Shown: in pieces, positions 1,206-56,971 of the stretch
Position numbering within the stretch: the stretch's first letter is position 1
How the letters are laid out: every line of letters starts with the position of its first letter
DNA from: Candidatus Bathyarchaeia archaeon
Lineage (GTDB): Archaea; Thermoproteota; Bathyarchaeia; 40CM-2-53-6
Assembly: GCA_049517415.1 (NCBI GenBank)
Contig: JBEKSC010000006.1
Span: forward strand, 1-64,000
Direction of reading: 5' to 3'
DNA length: 64,000 nt
The notes under the pieces: model-generated
Database searches by the model: none
Told to the model about the DNA's origin: nothing
What the model saw: only the letters and a program-made list of their open reading frames with translations
Made by a program: the position numbers and the translations under genes

Positions 1206-1482
1206 CCTAATCGTCACGTGTCAATCGCTTCTTGAACTGTCGCCTCTTGAAAGTTATGCCTCCTACGGTTTAGAGTTTCTCTGCAAAATGTCCTAAGTAA
1301 CCGTCCCATCCAGAACTTGCGTAGGTAGATCGGCTGAGATTTACCTTCGAATCCAAAGAAAACTGCCGGTATATCTGCCCACAACAAACTTGAAACCGGA
1401 ACAGACACAGGAAAAGCCTCTGTGTTTTTATGTATAATGCGGGTGCGTTAGCGTTTGGCCAACCTATACGGATTCGTTTGAG

Positions 1483-3021
1483 TTGACATTGTCTTCTAAA
1501 ATATTCCTCAGAGAAGCCACTGGACTAACAAAGAAAGTTTCGTTACTAGACGCAGTGGCCATCAACGTTAGTTACATGTCTGTTGGGGCAGCTCTCGCTC
1601 TCGTTGGGTTTACGATGCTAGCCCTTCCGACGGTGTCAGGTGTCAACCTCGTTTTCGGTTCCGCAATTGCCGCATTACTGACTATCCCTCAAATGATCGT
1701 ATACACTATGATGTCGCGTCGCGTGTCAAGGACTGGAGGGGACTATGTGTGGATGTCGCGGTCGCTTGGTGGTTTTCTCGGAAGCACTGTAACGTTAATG
1801 GGTATCACACTCGAAACGATGCCCTACCTCGCGCTTATCGCATTGTCAGCCGTGTTCGCTGTTGGATCTGTCGGGCTATCCCTTGGTTACTCAAACATGT
1901 TGGGTCTCGCGTTACCAGGTAACATAACGGGCTCCGATCCCCTCTCGCAGTTCCTGTTAGCCTCTATACTCGTGTTTACGCTAATCGTAATCAACATACT
2001 GAAGCCTAGGCTTGGATTCAAATTGATCTCAACGTTCTGGATTATCGGCATGGCTGCCGTAGCCCTTGCCGTTGCAACAATACTCACGGCTGGCACGGCG
2101 GGTGTAGAGAAATACGTAAACGGACTGAACATTCCGAATACGACGTACGCCTCTCTCGCCAGCTCATACTCGGGGCCCGCTTTCGATTTGAAATCAACTC
2201 TCTTAATGATGCCTTACTTTGCGCTCTTCACGTATCCTTGGTTTAACGCGGCGCCCTCAGTTGGTTCCGAGTTGGCGGGCAGAGCATCGAAGTGGAACGT
2301 TCCAATCTCGCTCCTTCTAGCCTTCCTCGTCGTTACTATTCCCTTTGGATCGATGTACTATGTTGGAGGGTTCCGGTTCATGACCGCAGCATTCTCAAAC
2401 CCAACTCTAGTGAACAATTACTCATTCAATTTCTGGACTTTGGCTATGGGCGTATCGTCGAATTACGTGCAGGCTTGGATAATAGGCATCGGCTGGGTCG
2501 TGCTGACCGTTGCGATCTTAGCCTTCGGCATAATCACCATCTCCAGGTACATGCTGGCACAGGCTTTTGATCGATACCTTCCGTCACAGCTTGCCTACGT
2601 AAGCCCGAAATACGGCTCGCCCGTGGTCGCGCATGTACTTGACCTTGGAGTAACCATAGGCCTAATCGGCCTAGCGGCCTTTCTATACGGAACGCTTTCC
2701 TCGCTCTACGGTGCCGTAATGGCTTCAATGATTTACTTCGCTTTCGTCGGAATTGCAGCCGTAATCTATGCTGTGAGGAAGGAGAGGGGAGGCGCCAAGG
2801 TCCTACTTGCAGCCTCAGGGGTCCTACAGTCCCTTGTCTTCGCCTATTTGACCTACGAATTCCTAAGCTATCCAAGAGTTTGGGGAGGTAACCCGTTAGC
2901 CTACGGCTACATCGCCGCCACTTTCATAGTGGGCGCCTTACTATACGTAATCACGAAGAACAAGCTTCGGAATGAGGGCTTGAACATATCACTAACGTTC
3001 AAAGATATTCCCCCGGAGTAG
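1483..3021 (+). CDS. APC-family amino acid permease
   Basis: FLREATGLTK N-terminus, RTGGDYVW, many TM segments, FKDIPPE C-terminus. Confidence 0.9.
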   Translation: MTLSSKIFLREATGLTKKVSLLDAVAINVSYMSVGAALALVGFTMLALPTVSGVNLVFGSAIAALLTIPQMIVYTMMSRRVSRTGGDYVWMSRSLGGFLGSTVTLMGITLETMPYLALIALSAVFAVGSVGLSLGYSNMLGLALPGNITGSDPLSQFLLASILVFTLIVINILKPRLGFKLISTFWIIGMAAVALAVATILTAGTAGVEKYVNGLNIPNTTYASLASSYSGPAFDLKSTLLMMPYFALFTYPWFNAAPSVGSELAGRASKWNVPISLLLAFLVVTIPFGSMYYVGGFRFMTAAFSNPTLVNNYSFNFWTLAMGVSSNYVQAWIIGIGWVVLTVAILAFGIITISRYMLAQAFDRYLPSQLAYVSPKYGSPVVAHVLDLGVTIGLIGLAAFLYGTLSSLYGAVMASMIYFAFVGIAAVIYAVRKERGGAKVLLAASGVLQSLVFAYLTYEFLSYPRVWGGNPLAYGYIAATFIVGALLYVITKNKLRNEGLNISLTFKDIPPE

Positions 3022-3074
3022 CACATCGCCTCAACCGGAGTAATTGTAAGCGTAGAGGGTCGCTGTTGGAGACT

Positions 3075-3809
3075 TTACTTTTTCTTGTTGGGGTACGGGC
3101 ACAGATTCTCTACCGGACAGGTGGAGCAGAGCGGCCTCCGTGCTCTGCAAGTCTGTCTCCCATGCGCCATCATATACAACGGGACGAAACGCGCATCCTC
3201 TTCACGAAACAGCTGCATCAAGAACACTCTAACCTTTTCATACCCAGCTTTCCTTGGGGCGAAGCCGAGCCGTTTCGAAACGCGGTCTACGTGTGTATCC
3301 ACAGATATTGTGGGACGGCCTAAAACACCTAGTAGAACGTCCGCTGTTTTTGGTCCCACTCTCGGCAATTCCTGGAGTGCAACCCGCACTTCTTCAACCG
3401 AGCCGTTCAGTGCGGTTTCAACGTTACCCGAATATCGTTCAGCAATGACTTTGGCGAGCTGCTTTAGGCCTCGTGCCTTTTGCTTATGCAAACCTGCAAC
3501 GTGGATAGCTTTCTCTATAGTCCGCACGTTTGCTCCGCTTAACCCAGTTACGGTTACGCCTACTCTCCGGTCAAGGTTTCTGAAGGCTCTGAGTGCAGCC
3601 ACATCTGTACAGTTCTGTGTAAGAACGGTTACGACAAGAATACGGAAAGGATCTGGTGTTTCTTTTGTCACAGTCAATGTGGCGAAGTCTTTCTCACGTA
3701 TGACGAGCGTAGCGCGGAGGATATTGAGAATTTTCTGGGCCCGGTCTCTCTCAGATTTGAGAACTATATTTTCCAATTGTGATTGTTCTTCAGGCGAGTG
3801 CGTTCGCAA
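3075..3809 (-). CDS. nth: Endonuclease III (HhH-GPD, 4Fe-4S)
   Basis: LPRVGPKTA HhH motif, VDTHV, C-x6-C-x2-C-x5-C. Confidence 0.9.
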   Translation of the reverse strand: MRTHSPEEQSQLENIVLKSERDRAQKILNILRATLVIREKDFATLTVTKETPDPFRILVVTVLTQNCTDVAALRAFRNLDRRVGVTVTGLSGANVRTIEKAIHVAGLHKQKARGLKQLAKVIAERYSGNVETALNGSVEEVRVALQELPRVGPKTADVLLGVLGRPTISVDTHVDRVSKRLGFAPRKAGYEKVRVFLMQLFREEDARFVPLYMMAHGRQTCRARRPLCSTCPVENLCPYPNKKK

Positions 3810-11030: not shown

Positions 11031-11128
11031 GGGCCGGTAGTTCAGCCTGGTTAGAAGACGAACGGTCTGGCCTGAACGTTGCCCTTACACGGCAAAGGTC
11101 GCCGGTTCAAATCCGGTCCGGCCCACCA
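11031..11128 (+). tRNA. tRNA-Val(TAC) with a 20-nt intron at 11055-11074 (D-arm, about 22/23); CCA encoded
   Basis: GGGCCGG/CCGGCCC acceptor stem, TTGCC-CTTACAC-GGCAA anticodon arm, GTTCAAATC T-loop; removing the insert restores D-stem GTTC/GAAC. Confidence 0.93.
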
Positions 11129-11164
11129 CACGACCAGTCCGGCCCATTCTCAGAGCAACGATAA

Positions 11165-54057: not shown

Positions 54058-55779
54058 TTGTCTGAGAGCCGACCAGTCGTCATGGGTACACGTGGTGCCA
54101 TTACCACTTCAAACTATATGGCAACATCGGCCGGATTTGAAATCCTTCTGGCCGGGGGAAACGCAATCGATGCTTCCATTGCTGCAGGATTGGCGCTGCA
54201 TGTTGTCGAACCACATATGAATGGAATCGGCGGCGAAACCCCAATACTTCTGTACTCTGCTAGAAAGCGTAGAATCTTTGCCATATCAGGGCAAGGGCCT
54301 GCCCCAAAGGCAGCGACTCTCGAATTCTTCGAAGGAAACGGAATCAGGTTAATTCCAGGCGACGGTCTTCTTCCCGCAACGGTCCCCGCGTCCTTTGACG
54401 CATGGATTACTTGCCTTAGGTTTTTTGGAACGATGACTCTCAGGGAAGTGATTGCCCCCGCCATTAGACTGGCCGAGGAAGGTTTTCCGGTGTATGCCGC
54501 GCTTCATGAGATTGTGACGCGACATGCCAAGCGTTTTCTCAGCGAATGGCCTACAACTGCAAGAATCTATCTTCCGCGAGGCAGAATTCCTCGAATTGGC
54601 GAGGTTCTGAGGCAAAATGAACTGGCGAAGACTCTTCGCAGCCTAGCGGAGGCGGAGCGCCGCGCTGGGAAGAACAGGGAGAAGGGGCTCGAAGCAGCGA
54701 GGCACTATTTCTACGAAGGGCCTATAGCGCGAGAGATCGCGCAGTTCGCGGCAAAACGATCATTCAAGGATGCAACCGGAAAATATCACAACGGGTTAAT
54801 CACCGCGGAAGATCTCGCCGACTACAAAACGAGAATAGAGAAAACTGTCAACATAGACTACAAAGGTGTAACCGTTCATAAATGCGGACCTTGGAGCCAA
54901 GGACCCGTTCTCCTCCAACAGTTACGATTGCTTGAAGACTACGATCTAAGACGACTTCGACACAACTCAGCCGACTATATTCATCTAATCACGGAAGCAT
55001 CAAAGCTTGCTTTCGCGGACCGGGAAGCTTTCTACGGTGACCCGCTTTACACCGACGTTCCTCTCACAAGACTACTTTCGCGGGACTACTCTAGGAAGAG
55101 AAAGGAGCTTATCGACATGAGAAAGGCGTCACTAACACTCCGGACAGGCAGCGGATCTCACATCCCAGTGTCAGAAGGTACTCGGCTCTATACTGGTGAC
55201 ACGACCCACCTTGATGCCGTCGACTCAGATGGTAACATGGTTTCTGCAACCCCTAGCGGCGGGTGGATTACGAGTTCTCCCGTAATCGAGGGTCTGGGGT
55301 TTCCTCTGGGAACACGAGGCCAAATGTTCTCATTAGACGCTGCACACCCGAATTGTCTGGCGCCAGGGAAACGCCCGCGAACAACGTTAACTCCAAGCCT
55401 CATCAGTTCGAAAAGACGACCTGTTCTGGCCTTTGGGACGCCTGGCGGAGACCAACAAGACCAGTGGGCACTTCAATTCTTTCTCAATTTCATGGAGTTC
55501 GGCATGGATCTCCAGGCAGCGATCGATGCTCCATCGTTCCATAATCAGCATTTTCCAAGCTCCTTCTATCCTAGGAAGGCCGAGCTTGGCAGCCTGTACG
55601 TGGAAGGGCGAATACCCAGAGGAATCGTGAACGAATTGAGGAGTAGAGGTCATAACGTGATTGTCCAAGGTGATTGGGTGAACGGCCGTATGACAGCAGC
55701 ACATTATGATTGGGAGAATAATGTAGTGAGTGCCGCCGCCTCGTCGCGATATCAGATAGCCTACGCATTAGCACATTAA
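54058..55779 (+). CDS. Gamma-glutamyltransferase-family protein
   Basis: GGNAIDA, GDTTHL, PGKRPRTTL, GTPGGD. Confidence 0.9.
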   Translation: MSESRPVVMGTRGAITTSNYMATSAGFEILLAGGNAIDASIAAGLALHVVEPHMNGIGGETPILLYSARKRRIFAISGQGPAPKAATLEFFEGNGIRLIPGDGLLPATVPASFDAWITCLRFFGTMTLREVIAPAIRLAEEGFPVYAALHEIVTRHAKRFLSEWPTTARIYLPRGRIPRIGEVLRQNELAKTLRSLAEAERRAGKNREKGLEAARHYFYEGPIAREIAQFAAKRSFKDATGKYHNGLITAEDLADYKTRIEKTVNIDYKGVTVHKCGPWSQGPVLLQQLRLLEDYDLRRLRHNSADYIHLITEASKLAFADREAFYGDPLYTDVPLTRLLSRDYSRKRKELIDMRKASLTLRTGSGSHIPVSEGTRLYTGDTTHLDAVDSDGNMVSATPSGGWITSSPVIEGLGFPLGTRGQMFSLDAAHPNCLAPGKRPRTTLTPSLISSKRRPVLAFGTPGGDQQDQWALQFFLNFMEFGMDLQAAIDAPSFHNQHFPSSFYPRKAELGSLYVEGRIPRGIVNELRSRGHNVIVQGDWVNGRMTAAHYDWENNVVSAAASSRYQIAYALAH

Positions 55780-55845
55780 TGCGAGTGACTCTCGAAGCGC
55801 CATTGAAGATAAGCACACACTGGTAGGATACCTATACAATTGTAC

Positions 55846-55878
55846 TGGTGGGCCGGGAGAGATTTGAACTCTCGAGCA
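55846..55878 (-). other. Orphan tRNA 3' fragment (variable loop, T-arm, acceptor 3' strand, ACCA); att-like
   Basis: Minus strand TGCTC-GAGAG-TTCAAAT-CTCTC-CCGGCCC-ACCA; 26/33 identical to the tRNA-Val(GAC) 3' end; no 5' half nearby. Confidence 0.8.
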
Positions 55879-55951
55879 GTCTTGAGTACTTTCATTCATC
55901 TCTGGTTCTTCTTGCTTTCAAGAAACTCTCTATATTCGGAAGAGTGGGCCA

Positions 55952-56725
55952 TTGATTCCGGAAGGAACGAAAATCGATATCATAACAAGAGTCCAGTCAG
56001 GTCAGTCGATTCGTCACGTTGCACAAGATCTTGGCATTCCACTTTCAACTGCTTACCATCACGGCCGGAGTTTCTGTAATCATCAATCGCGAATCGAGAT
56101 GAACATGCTGAGGCAAGGCCAGCTGGGTTACTTGCTAGGGATGTTCGTAGGAGACGGGAGTCTCATTCGGGATAAGCCTCGAGGGGAGTTCCTTGTCAAG
56201 ATTGCTTTGAACAGGAGAAGAGATTTGGACATTGTTCAATTCGTTACGCTAATGTTTGAAAAAGCAGGTAAGAAAGTCAACTTTCTAACTGAGCGAGGCA
56301 TGATCATAATTAGAGTCTGGTCTAAGATTTTCTATGAATTCATCGAAGATTACGTTAAGCTCGAAAGAAACCATCTATCCCATCATCACACGAAAATTCT
56401 CTTGCGCACCCAGCGATGGACTCGGGAGTTTGCTCTTGGTTTCATTGGCGGCCTAATAGACAGCGATGGCCATGTCGTTAGCAACTGGAAAGGCGGTCAT
56501 TACGGTGCGGTAGTGACTACGAGTAGTAGTTCTCTCAAACGACAACTCTGCAGTCTATGCGACGCTCTTGGTATCAATGTGACCAGCCATGTACAAGCGC
56601 GTGACCCCTTTCAGGGCAAGTCTCTTTATTCAGTGTATATCCGGTCGCCTGATTTGCATGCATTATGTGGAACACTACTTTCCGTAAAACATTCGAGGTT
56701 TCATGGTGGGCCGGGGCGGATTTGA
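55952..56725 (+). CDS. Free-standing double-motif LAGLIDADG endonuclease with N-terminal HTH
   Basis: YLLGMFVGDGS and FIGGLIDSDGH; SIRHVAQDLGIPLSTAY HTH; stop lies inside the antisense tRNA. Confidence 0.88.
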   Translation: MIPEGTKIDIITRVQSGQSIRHVAQDLGIPLSTAYHHGRSFCNHQSRIEMNMLRQGQLGYLLGMFVGDGSLIRDKPRGEFLVKIALNRRRDLDIVQFVTLMFEKAGKKVNFLTERGMIIIRVWSKIFYEFIEDYVKLERNHLSHHHTKILLRTQRWTREFALGFIGGLIDSDGHVVSNWKGGHYGAVVTTSSSSLKRQLCSLCDALGINVTSHVQARDPFQGKSLYSVYIRSPDLHALCGTLLSVKHSRFHGGPGRI

Positions 56726-56798
56726 ACCACCGACCACCTGTTTACAGTTTGTTGTCTCGTGTCAGGCAGGTATCCTAACCAGACTAGACGACCGGCCC
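56704..56798 (-). tRNA. tRNA-Val(GAC) with a 17-nt intron at 56741-56757 (about 39/40); CCA encoded
   Basis: GGGCCGG/CCGGCCC acceptor stem; CCTGC-CTGACAC-G[intron]CAGG; GGTGG-TTCAAAT-CCGCC. Confidence 0.9.
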
Positions 56799-56971
56799 AA
56801 AGTGGCGTTGAATGAAGAGCGCAGAGAAATAAAGACTACCCAATAGGTTGCACCCTTTCCGAGAGTTCCATGAGCCTGAGGTTGGGTCGAAGCGACTTTA
56901 GGGCGCCAACTTCGTTAAGAAATCGGAAGGTCTTTTTGTGAAGAGGAGAAATGTTGTAGGAGCTGGTAGGT

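Follow-up and report, generated by a model that had tools for sequence, protein, structure and literature searches.

The stretch of DNA analysed here (64,000 nucleotides, hereafter the window) is contig C6 of a Bathyarchaeia metagenome-assembled genome (MAG), denoted G000 below; other G numbers denote compared genomes and L numbers compared loci. The window was found to contain a tRNA-Val(GAC) gene on the reverse strand (56704..56798), a free-standing LAGLIDADG homing endonuclease gene (HEG) on the forward strand (55952..56725) whose end overlaps the 3′ end of the tRNA gene, and an orphan tRNA 3′ end on the reverse strand (55846..55875) before the start of the HEG. The three features are described below as a candidate homing cassette.

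The tRNA-Val(GAC) gene was matched by the Rfam tRNA model at 56707-56798 on the reverse strand (46.4 bits, E 3.9e-8) with a 19-nt insertion in the anticodon arm, and by direct reading the gene was found to include an encoded CCA at 56704-56706. The 5′ exon (56758..56798, reverse strand; Rfam, alignment and genome search) is the sole copy of this 5′ half in the genome, followed by a 17-nt intron after position 39 (56741..56757, reverse strand; direct reading, boundaries uncertain by 1-2 nt) and the 3′ exon of the working tRNA (56704..56740, reverse strand; Rfam and direct reading). From the T-stem onward (56704-56731, reverse strand), comparison across loci identified a replacement end carried by the cassette, which contains the T-arm GGTGG/TTCAAAT/CCGCC followed by the acceptor strand CCGGCCC, A and CCA. 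The anticodons given by ARAGORN for the window tRNA (Ser-tga, Tyr-gta) were rejected, as the orthologs and direct reading gave Val(GAC) with the intron after position 39; ARAGORN itself called the orthologous gene tRNA-Val(gac) at 15 of the 20 same-genus loci and placed its intron at position 37-41. Two other ARAGORN calls of tRNA-Val (C1:94774-94896 and C4:117730-119008) were found not to be copies, the former containing another acceptor stem and the latter lying in coding sequence with a 1197-nt 'intron'.

The orphan contains 30 nt, read from the sequence as the last two nucleotides of the variable loop (TC), the T-arm GAGAG/TTCAAAT/CTCTC, the acceptor strand CCGGCCC, the discriminator A and CCA, and is located 76 nt before the HEG start codon. 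The acceptor strand with CCA and the T-loop are common to the orphan and the working gene, whereas the working stem GGTGG/CCGCC differs from the orphan stem GAGAG/CTCTC at 3 T-stem pairs; 5 pairs are kept in all four T-stem variants encountered in this work. The genome contains one tRNA-Val(GAC) gene, its sole GAGAG T-arm is that of the orphan, and no intact GAGAG site is present. Three copies of the pattern TGGTGGGCCGG-N5-RTTTGAA are present in the window, compared with an expectation of 0.00 from 100 shuffles; the third is part of a tRNA-Val(UAC)-like gene at 11031-11128. In the latter region (11031-11146), the gene was found to contain the anticodon loop CTTACAC, the same acceptor stem, the T-stem GCCGG/CCGGT and an internal insertion, followed 8 nt past its CCA by a 10-nt repeat of the acceptor 3′ strand (GTCCGGCCCA), which may be the scar of an old 3′-end event.

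The HEG, called as an open reading frame (ORF) with a TTG start and assigned by Pfam, encodes a protein of 257 aa with an N-terminal helix-turn-helix (HTH) region and two LAGLIDADG motifs; it is single-copy in its genome and its relatives are referred to as family A. The Pfam family LAGLIDADG_3 matched in two stretches (E 3.4e-12, 46.9 bits against a cut-off of 22.5), followed by Hom_end (5e-8), and the N-terminal HTH matches stayed below the Pfam cut-offs (CENP-B_N, 19.3 versus 21.2; HTH_23, 18.6 versus 24.6). Motif 1 is LGYLLGMFVGDGSL (GDG, D68) and motif 2 is FIGGLIDSDGHV (SDG, D172), and these acidic residues, which close the two motifs, were found to be invariant in 15 aligned homologs. 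The AlphaFold model (predicted local distance difference test score 84.7, predicted template modelling (TM) score 0.81) contains three helices at residues 4-41 and a predicted pseudo-dimeric alpha-beta-beta-alpha-beta-beta-alpha fold. Its best match in the PDB by Foldseek was I-DmoI (2vs7_A, E 1.9e-10, target-normalised TM 0.66); the top 30+ matches were I-DmoI chains, followed by PI-SceI and I-Tsp061I. The dN/dS between the window gene and the intact, 84%-identical gene of L066 was 0.19.

The ORF and the tRNA gene share 22 nt (56704..56725), in which the ORF end GGPGRI-stop is antisense to the CCA, the acceptor strand, the 3′ strand of the T-stem and the T-loop, so that the stop codon TGA is the antisense of the T-loop TTCA. 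The ORF lies outside any intron or intein: it is located downstream of the tRNA 3′ exon in antisense orientation, with the 17-nt tRNA intron separate from it, and no extein-like flanks were found around it. The leader between the orphan and the ORF start (55876..55951, forward strand) includes ctatatt (55930-55936), a TATA-like sequence some 16-22 nt ahead of the TTG and possibly an archaeal promoter for a nearly leaderless mRNA. The leader segment adjoining the orphan (agtactttcattcatctctggt) is common to the G007-type and L069 cassettes described below. No further ORF with a family match was found in the 858-bp interval, where LAGLIDADG and HTH matches occurred alone, with no integrase or recombinase. 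An earlier note on this DNA, made from the sequence alone, had described a 257-aa two-motif LAGLIDADG ORF outside an intron or intein, an N-terminal HTH, a GGPGRI-stop end antisense to the tRNA-Val(GAC) 3′ end, a second same-orientation tRNA 3′ end about 70 nt before the start, and an interval devoid of integrase and transposase. The Pfam matches, the motifs, the position relative to the tRNA intron, the three predicted helices, the overlap with its stop in the T-loop, the orphan and the content of the interval agree with this description on each point.

The tRNA-Val locus was compared in 19 further genomes of the genus, and the whole tRNA-Val(GAC) was visible in 19 genomes. The T-stem GAGAG was found in 8 of the 19 (G001, G002, G003, G004, G005, G006, G010 and G011), GCCGG in another 8 (G013, G014, G015, G016, G017, G018, G019 and G021) and GGTGG in 3 (G000, G007 and G020), the last being confined to the window's own HEG clade (window, G007 type, L066 and L069) plus G020. 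No endonuclease gene was detectable near the GAGAG tRNA-Val in 7 of these 8 genomes (tblastn E<1, compared flank). The earlier note had proposed looking for an empty site in related genomes, and these seven congeners contain one: an uninterrupted tRNA-Val(GAC) with the T-stem of the orphan. The HEG-less alleles of G005 and G003 contain the same GGT...tRNA-RBL-rSAM synteny as the window, with an EamA-type permease between GGT and the tRNA in G005. The closest congener, G014, matches G000 at 90.1% (left side, 1271 nt) and 91.2% (right side, 1897 nt); its orphan differs by one substitution, is equally far from the GGT stop and adjoins an orthologous GGT flank. The orphan is thus the displaced resident 3′ end of tRNA-Val(GAC), since the same T-arm is present in the intact tRNA-Val of 8 congeners and the orphan and its GGT flank are orthologous in G014. 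The assembly of G009 was found to break within tRNA-Val (L053/L054, contigs C134 and C154), with the 5′ part at one contig end and a GAGAG 3′ end, after non-tRNA sequence, opening the contig that holds GGT; such a break is the effect expected on an assembler from a duplicated 3′ end.

The layout was found to be conserved in family A. Among 27 protein homologs (E≤1e-3, collection of 5.8 billion proteins), 23 end in HGGPGR(I/T/N), the antisense of the acceptor strand, CCA, T-stem and T-loop, the final residue varying with the T-loop sequence (AAAT, AAGT or AATT); the other four are cut by a contig end (P0003), divergent (P0021) or distant (P0026 and P0027). Scans of genome and metagenome contigs gave 27 loci (4 from genome contigs), 19 of them at ≥46% identity, to which the window is added in the orphan counts (20 loci). 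In 16 of the 19, the stop codon of the ORF is itself the T-loop TGA of a tRNA-Val(GAC) 3′ end on the other strand; an overlapping C-terminal piece is retained in L067 (frame break) and L069 (insertion sequence (IS) insertion), and L087 runs off its contig, so that a tRNA-Val(GAC) 3′ end adjoins every one of the 18 homolog loci in which the 3′ end can be seen. The T-stem beside the HEG was GCCGG or GGTGG in 19 of 19 loci with the end visible (window included). GGTGG adjoins the HEG in the window's clade at 79-100% identity (window, L061/L065/L067/L068 of the G007 type, L066 and L069), and GCCGG in all others.

A second 3′ fragment was present in 16 of the 20 loci and was of the GAGAG type in 16 of 16, some with 1-2 decay mutations. 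In 13 of the 20, the orphan lies 106-143 nt before the match start with ≤2 mismatches in the acceptor strand and CCA. The CCA end is changed in L073 and L074, and an eroded T-arm alone remains in L075. The orphan is absent from L078 and L062 (5′-truncated genes), L066 (66 nt of upstream sequence only) and L077. The orphan start varies by lineage (TCGAGAG, GTCGAGAG, GGTCGAGAG or GTGGTCGAGAG), the distance from the orphan to the tRNA end is 868-915 nt, which leaves room for one gene only, and the layout recurs at about 50% protein identity. The orphan as a trans-spliced or alternative 3′ exon was considered and rejected, as orphans decay across loci, with an acceptor mutation in G014, GAGAA in the G007 type, loss of the CCA in L073 and L074, and erosion in L075 and L079.

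A profile search with family A returned 1319 cluster representatives at E≤0.001, 284 of them at E≤1e-10, among 1.84 billion; most of the 150 matches listed match from the first profile positions over about 250 aa, which indicates the same HTH and LAGLIDADG build in most listed representatives. A distant family-A clade (L081 and L083-L086, 36-39% identity) was found to contain a mirror layout with the tRNA 50-70 nt past the stop; in L083 (454-1630), a 30-nt tRNA 5′ fragment is followed by the ORF and then by a whole same-strand tRNA with a long insertion. The ORF of L063 (Aenigmatarchaeota) overlaps the 5′ end of tRNA-Ala, and that of L082 abuts tRNA-Ile(GAT).

The distribution of family A is sparse. 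Of 60 other genomes searched, only two gave a relative at E≤1e-30, namely G007 (90% identity, in-frame TAA) and G029 (116-aa piece), and the gene is intact in 1 of 23 genus genomes. G000 and G007 are 90% identical over the orphan, cassette and tRNA (998 nt), whereas identity is 72% in the GGT flank and 75% in the RBL flank; the encoded proteins are 90% (HEG), 64% (GGT) and 75% (RBL) identical. The intron of the window tRNA is identical to that of L069, near that of G007 and unlike that of G014, and it therefore arrived with the cassette. G004 and G018/G021 contain the same 5′ exon and intron with a different T-stem, so the intron was co-transferred in G000 and not in G004 relative to G018/G021, and the conversion tracts end at differing places, as expected of break repair and not of site-specific recombination.

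Homing endonucleases commonly pass through a cycle of invasion, fixation, decay and loss, and the stages observed in family A are those of this cycle. The gene is intact in G000, contains stop codons in G007, and is 5′-truncated in L078 and L062. In L069 (1176-3140), a 346-aa TnpB/IS605-OrfB-like ORF that carries a zinc-ribbon motif interrupts it after residue ~195. A C-terminal stump of family A was found beside the GCCGG tRNA of G015 (...ILSVKHQRCHGGPGRT-stop), with weaker ones in G019, G016, G018 and G021, and a variant T-stem with no recognisable HEG, corresponding to putatively resistant alleles, was found in G013, G014, G017 and G020.

In public data, ≥98% of the sampled words of 55700-56900 were present in 20 of the 24 runs listed, from 19 studies of peat, wetland and soil metagenomes, some of which may be the source of this assembly; no RNA data set was among the runs listed. 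Long contigs cross the whole cassette in 1 of 4 runs examined (X5) and cover most of it in X6 and X16. Two joints that skip 883-897 nt were rejected as empty sites of this strain, as they belong to uninterrupted tRNA-Val genes of other organisms, with 26-37 other letters between and unlike flanks.

In G014 (L041, G014:C3:85500-90500, 1247-3204), an ABC ATPase and permease, and not an HEG, were found between the GAGAG orphan and the tRNA 5′ end. A segment of 1969 nt, with the GCCGG 3′ exon, the intron and 5′-exon single-nucleotide polymorphisms, is 88.7% identical to G013, whereas the G014/G013 flanks are 68-72% identical and the G014/G000 flanks 90-91%. The homology to G013 begins about 10 nt past the orphan, which opens GGTC|GAGAG, and the junction sequence is unlike that of the G000, G007 and L069 cassettes; foreign cargo has apparently been captured at the same break point. 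In the simplest reading, the ancestor of G000 and G014 would have contained an uninterrupted GGT-70 nt-tRNA-Val(GAGAG) arrangement, and both lineages would have been broken at the same point. The break in G000 would have been repaired from a family-A cassette donor, and that in G014 one-sidedly from a G013-like allele, dragging in the ABC operon.

A second family of endonuclease genes (family B) was found at the same tRNA. The locus L071 contains, in order, an orphan (GAGAG), a family-A gene, an orphan (GCCGG), a family-B gene and an intact tRNA-Val(GAC) (GAGAG). Its family-B ORF (1157-2083) encodes 308 aa with an N-terminal HTH-like region and LAGLIDADG_3 (E 2.6e-16), is distantly related to family A, and ends ...DGGPGET-stop, the antisense of the GAGAG T-arm. 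In G004, a 315-aa family-B gene abuts the GAGAG tRNA-Val with an orphan GATGG/CCGTC 1 kb downstream, whereas its close relatives G018 and G021 contain the same intron but GCCGG and a family-A stump. The reverse succession was found in L076, where an orphan (GCCGG, with a deletion) is followed by a frameshifted family-B gene, an orphan (GAGAG), a family-A gene and the tRNA (GCCGG), and in L079, which contains the same order with family B reduced to residues 2-58. Family A has thus entered GAGAG alleles in every lineage seen and family B has entered GCCGG or GATGG alleles, with A-then-B and B-then-A successions both recorded in nested loci. The C-terminus GGPGE(T/I/N) was present in 7 of 18 close family-B homologs; another homolog (P0039) starts MVGRAGLEPAT, which reads as an antisense GCCGG-type 3′ end probably taken into the called ORF. 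In the 401-genome sample of the class, close family-B relatives (E≤1e-40) were found in G004 and G001 alone.

Further ORFs of this kind were observed at other tRNA genes. Family-B-like HTH-LAGLIDADG ORFs of congeners end antisense in or just before other tRNA 3′ ends (L093 in G018:C2, L095 in G016:C2, L090, L092, L101 and L103), the targets including Pro-TGG (GGAGRI-stop), Trp-like (GAPGGI-stop, SPGRDLN..) and Arg-TCG genes, so that the habit is not limited to tRNA-Val. In L089 (G001:C26, ~2400-2580), a family-B-like open frame of 362 aa continues into a tandem pair of same-strand tRNA 3′ ends located 8 nt apart (..AAATCCGGGCGGGCCCACCA and GTCGAGGGTTCGAATCCCTCCCGGCCCACCA). Relatives of about 280-320 aa in L096, L102 and L097 end YVENWLRK-stop with no adjoining tRNA; this subfamily possibly has a different target or is a domesticated branch.

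Taken together, the window most probably contains a recombinase-free homing cassette of about 860 bp established in the 3′ portion of the tRNA-Val(GAC) gene, a reading in which we have good confidence. The cassette consists of a replacement tRNA end with an altered but paired stem and one opposite-strand I-DmoI-like LAGLIDADG gene with its stop in the T-loop, and the resident GAGAG end persists as a decaying remnant 0.86 kb downstream. The earlier note had suggested a recombinase-free selfish element copied in with a replacement tRNA 3′ end and had proposed to examine homologs for linkage to tRNA genes and for a second 3′ fragment. The layout, the HEG-less alleles and the signs of transfer lend sequence-level support to this suggestion, and the homologs are tRNA-linked in the counts given above, for C-termini, abutting tRNA genes and orphans alike. 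Three features go beyond that suggestion: the displaced T-stem of family A is GAGAG in every lineage, a second endonuclease family apparently makes the opposite exchange, and in G014 an ABC operon was apparently captured as cargo where the tRNA gene had been broken.

The mechanism proposed from the anatomy of the loci is as follows. The family-A enzyme would cut HEG-less GAGAG tRNA-Val genes at or near the junction of the variable loop and the T-stem (GGTC|GAGAG), and its recognition sequence of about 20 bp would contain the 3′ anticodon stem, the variable loop and the 5′ strand of the T-stem (GCAGGTGGTC|GAGAGTTCAAAT). Indirect indications of such cutting are the constant break point, the lack of any intact GAGAG site in the genome that carries the enzyme, and the patchy distribution with its signs of transfer. 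The break would be repaired by copying the replacement end and the HEG from a cassette-bearing allele, homology being provided on one side by the 5′ part of the tRNA and on the other by the resident 3′ end and its flank. The 3 changed T-stem pairs beside the break point would make the working gene uncuttable, and the orphan would be spared by its missing left half-site; with a resistant working gene and a half-site-less orphan, the host would keep its sole tRNA-Val(GAC) and the element would be safe from its own enzyme. The antisense orientation would keep the HEG out of the tRNA transcript and give it its own promoter. Family B would target the GCCGG-type allele and reinstall GAGAG, each family regenerating the target of the other. 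The resulting exchange, a two-family 'ping-pong' on one site of an essential tRNA gene in which A cuts GAGAG and installs GCCGG or GGTGG and B cuts the product and reinstalls GAGAG, is put forward tentatively, at slightly below an even chance.

Several points weigh against these proposals. Both the cut site and the resistance assigned to the variant T-stems are deduced from anatomy, and the donor allele of G014 contains no HEG to account for the break there. L077, an intact-looking family-A locus, contains no orphan. Some loci are related (L061/L065/L067/L068 are one type, and L070/L072, L073/L074 and L076/L087 share flanks), which leaves about 10 independent lineages and not 20. No segregating empty site of the same population was found, the public contigs of 4 runs containing the cassette allele only for this strain (contigs drop rare variants). 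All genomes compared are MAGs, with a contamination of 6.86% in G000. The reciprocal-target claim is thinner, with 3-4 nested lineages behind it.

Among the other explanations, passive spread by ordinary homologous recombination retains the most, though it appears unlikely. The tRNA 5′ part and the orphan or flank would serve as arms, the endonuclease would be inactive or irrelevant, and the T-stems would mark donor lineages. The mosaic of G014, where an HEG-less ABC operon entered the same site, is in its favour, as are the nature of tRNA genes as conserved islands that favour recombination and the differing conversion tracts, with the intron co-transferred in one case and not in the other. 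It leaves unexplained, however, why all 16 family-A orphans are GAGAG and those of family B GCCGG or GATGG, why the break point at the variable loop and T-stem is constant, and why purifying selection acts on the gene and its catalytic residues are intact.

The remnant of an integrase-type element, in which the two tRNA 3′ ends would be attL and attR, the integrase would have been lost and the LAGLIDADG gene would be left-over cargo, is very improbable. In its favour, tyrosine-integrase elements of archaea classically leave duplicated tRNA 3′ ends behind. A 1.8-kb element with a predicted recombinase lies beside a tRNA fragment at the tRNA-Thr locus of Caldiarchaeum, according to the abstract of PMC3293823. 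The interval, on the other hand, holds one ORF in 858 bp and is of the same minimal size (868-915 nt) in all diverged loci, and the repeats are not identical att cores but differ systematically at 3 T-stem pairs across loci. The ORF stop codon is built into the tRNA, the junction shifts by a few nucleotides among lineages, and the DNA joined at this point in G014 is of another kind. Least probable of all is a domesticated DNA-binding protein, WhiA-like or a regulator of tRNA genes, with a host function at tRNA-Val and the orphan an unrelated relic: the HTH and LAGLIDADG architecture, the purifying selection (dN/dS 0.19) and the presence of the allele in 20 of 24 runs listed (19 studies) would suit it, but only 1 of 23 genus genomes has an intact gene, one pseudogene and several stumps being found in place of near-universal vertical inheritance, the catalytic Asp of both motifs is invariant, the cassettes of G000 and G007 are far more alike than their flanks, which indicates horizontal transfer, and the HTH is N-terminal here whereas that of WhiA is C-terminal.

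The homing cassette has its closest known counterpart in the mobile ORF elements (mORFs) of fungal mitochondria (Allomyces macrogynus atp6; Glomus atp6, atp9, cox2 and nad3), as described in PMC3630166. According to this paper, a mORF contains a free-standing endonuclease gene within a host gene, a foreign 3′ end keeps the gene working, the native 3′ end is displaced downstream and matches element-free relatives, and the Allomyces endonuclease was shown biochemically to drive mobility. The present cassette likewise contains an ORF in a host gene outside an intron or intein, a divergent functional 3′ end and a displaced native end, and the orphan T-arm equals the intact tRNA-Val T-arm of 8 congeners, as the native end does in element-free relatives of a mORF. 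It differs from these mORFs in its archaeal chromosome, its tRNA-gene target and its antisense, overlapping endonuclease with the stop in the T-loop. Immunity here would be obtained through compensatory changes of an RNA stem, in place of synonymous or divergent codons, and two families apparently swap alleles.

The protein resembles I-DmoI and the archaeal monomeric two-motif LAGLIDADG enzymes (PDB 2vs7, 1b24; I-Tsp061I 2dch) in its predicted fold and acidic motif residues. In contrast to I-DmoI and I-Tsp061I, which are intron-encoded by their PDB titles, it is free-standing, contains an extra N-terminal three-helix HTH-like domain and has about 20% identity. In tmRNA genes, as PMC11915505 describes, a LAGLIDADG HEG lies in group I introns of the T-loop and the self-splicing intron restores the RNA. 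The cassette is similar in placing a LAGLIDADG element at the T-arm region of a tRNA-like gene, but contains no ribozyme intron, the gene being restored by an altered, duplicated 3′ end. In Caldiarchaeum subterraneum (Sugahara et al. 2012, PMC3293823), a disrupted tRNA gene likewise has a working copy next to an orphan fragment and inserted DNA, although a LAGLIDADG gene, as in the window cassette, goes unmentioned for that element in the abstract. Among open-access papers and bioRxiv, none was found on a free-standing LAGLIDADG cassette that replaces the end of an archaeal tRNA gene, subscription journals being outside the scope of the search. A gene-end-replacing homing cassette is of a known kind, the host and the type of target being new and the apparent reciprocal structure of two families unexpected.

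The locus offers a testable case in which a homing endonuclease invades an essential non-coding RNA gene with no intron, overwriting its end with a base-pair-compensated variant. The paired enzymes, whose natural target and immune sites differ by 3 base pairs, would form a clean system for the central-base specificity of LAGLIDADG proteins. The findings bear on the import of foreign DNA, such as the ABC operon of G014, through double-strand breaks at tRNA genes, and on the origin of archaeal orphan tRNA fragments, T-arm polymorphism and non-canonical tRNA introns. They bear also on the long-term persistence of HEGs, for which reciprocal regeneration of targets is an alternative to constant horizontal escape. 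If the exchange between the two families is true, neither family would drive its own target extinct and both would escape the fate of invasion, fixation and decay. The recurring breaks would turn over the non-canonical intron of the tRNA, create the T-stem polymorphism of the genus and leave tRNA fragments behind, and one-ended repair would import neighbouring genes, as in G014. Homing endonucleases, and not integrases, would then be a main cause of fragmented and oddly interrupted tRNA genes in archaea.

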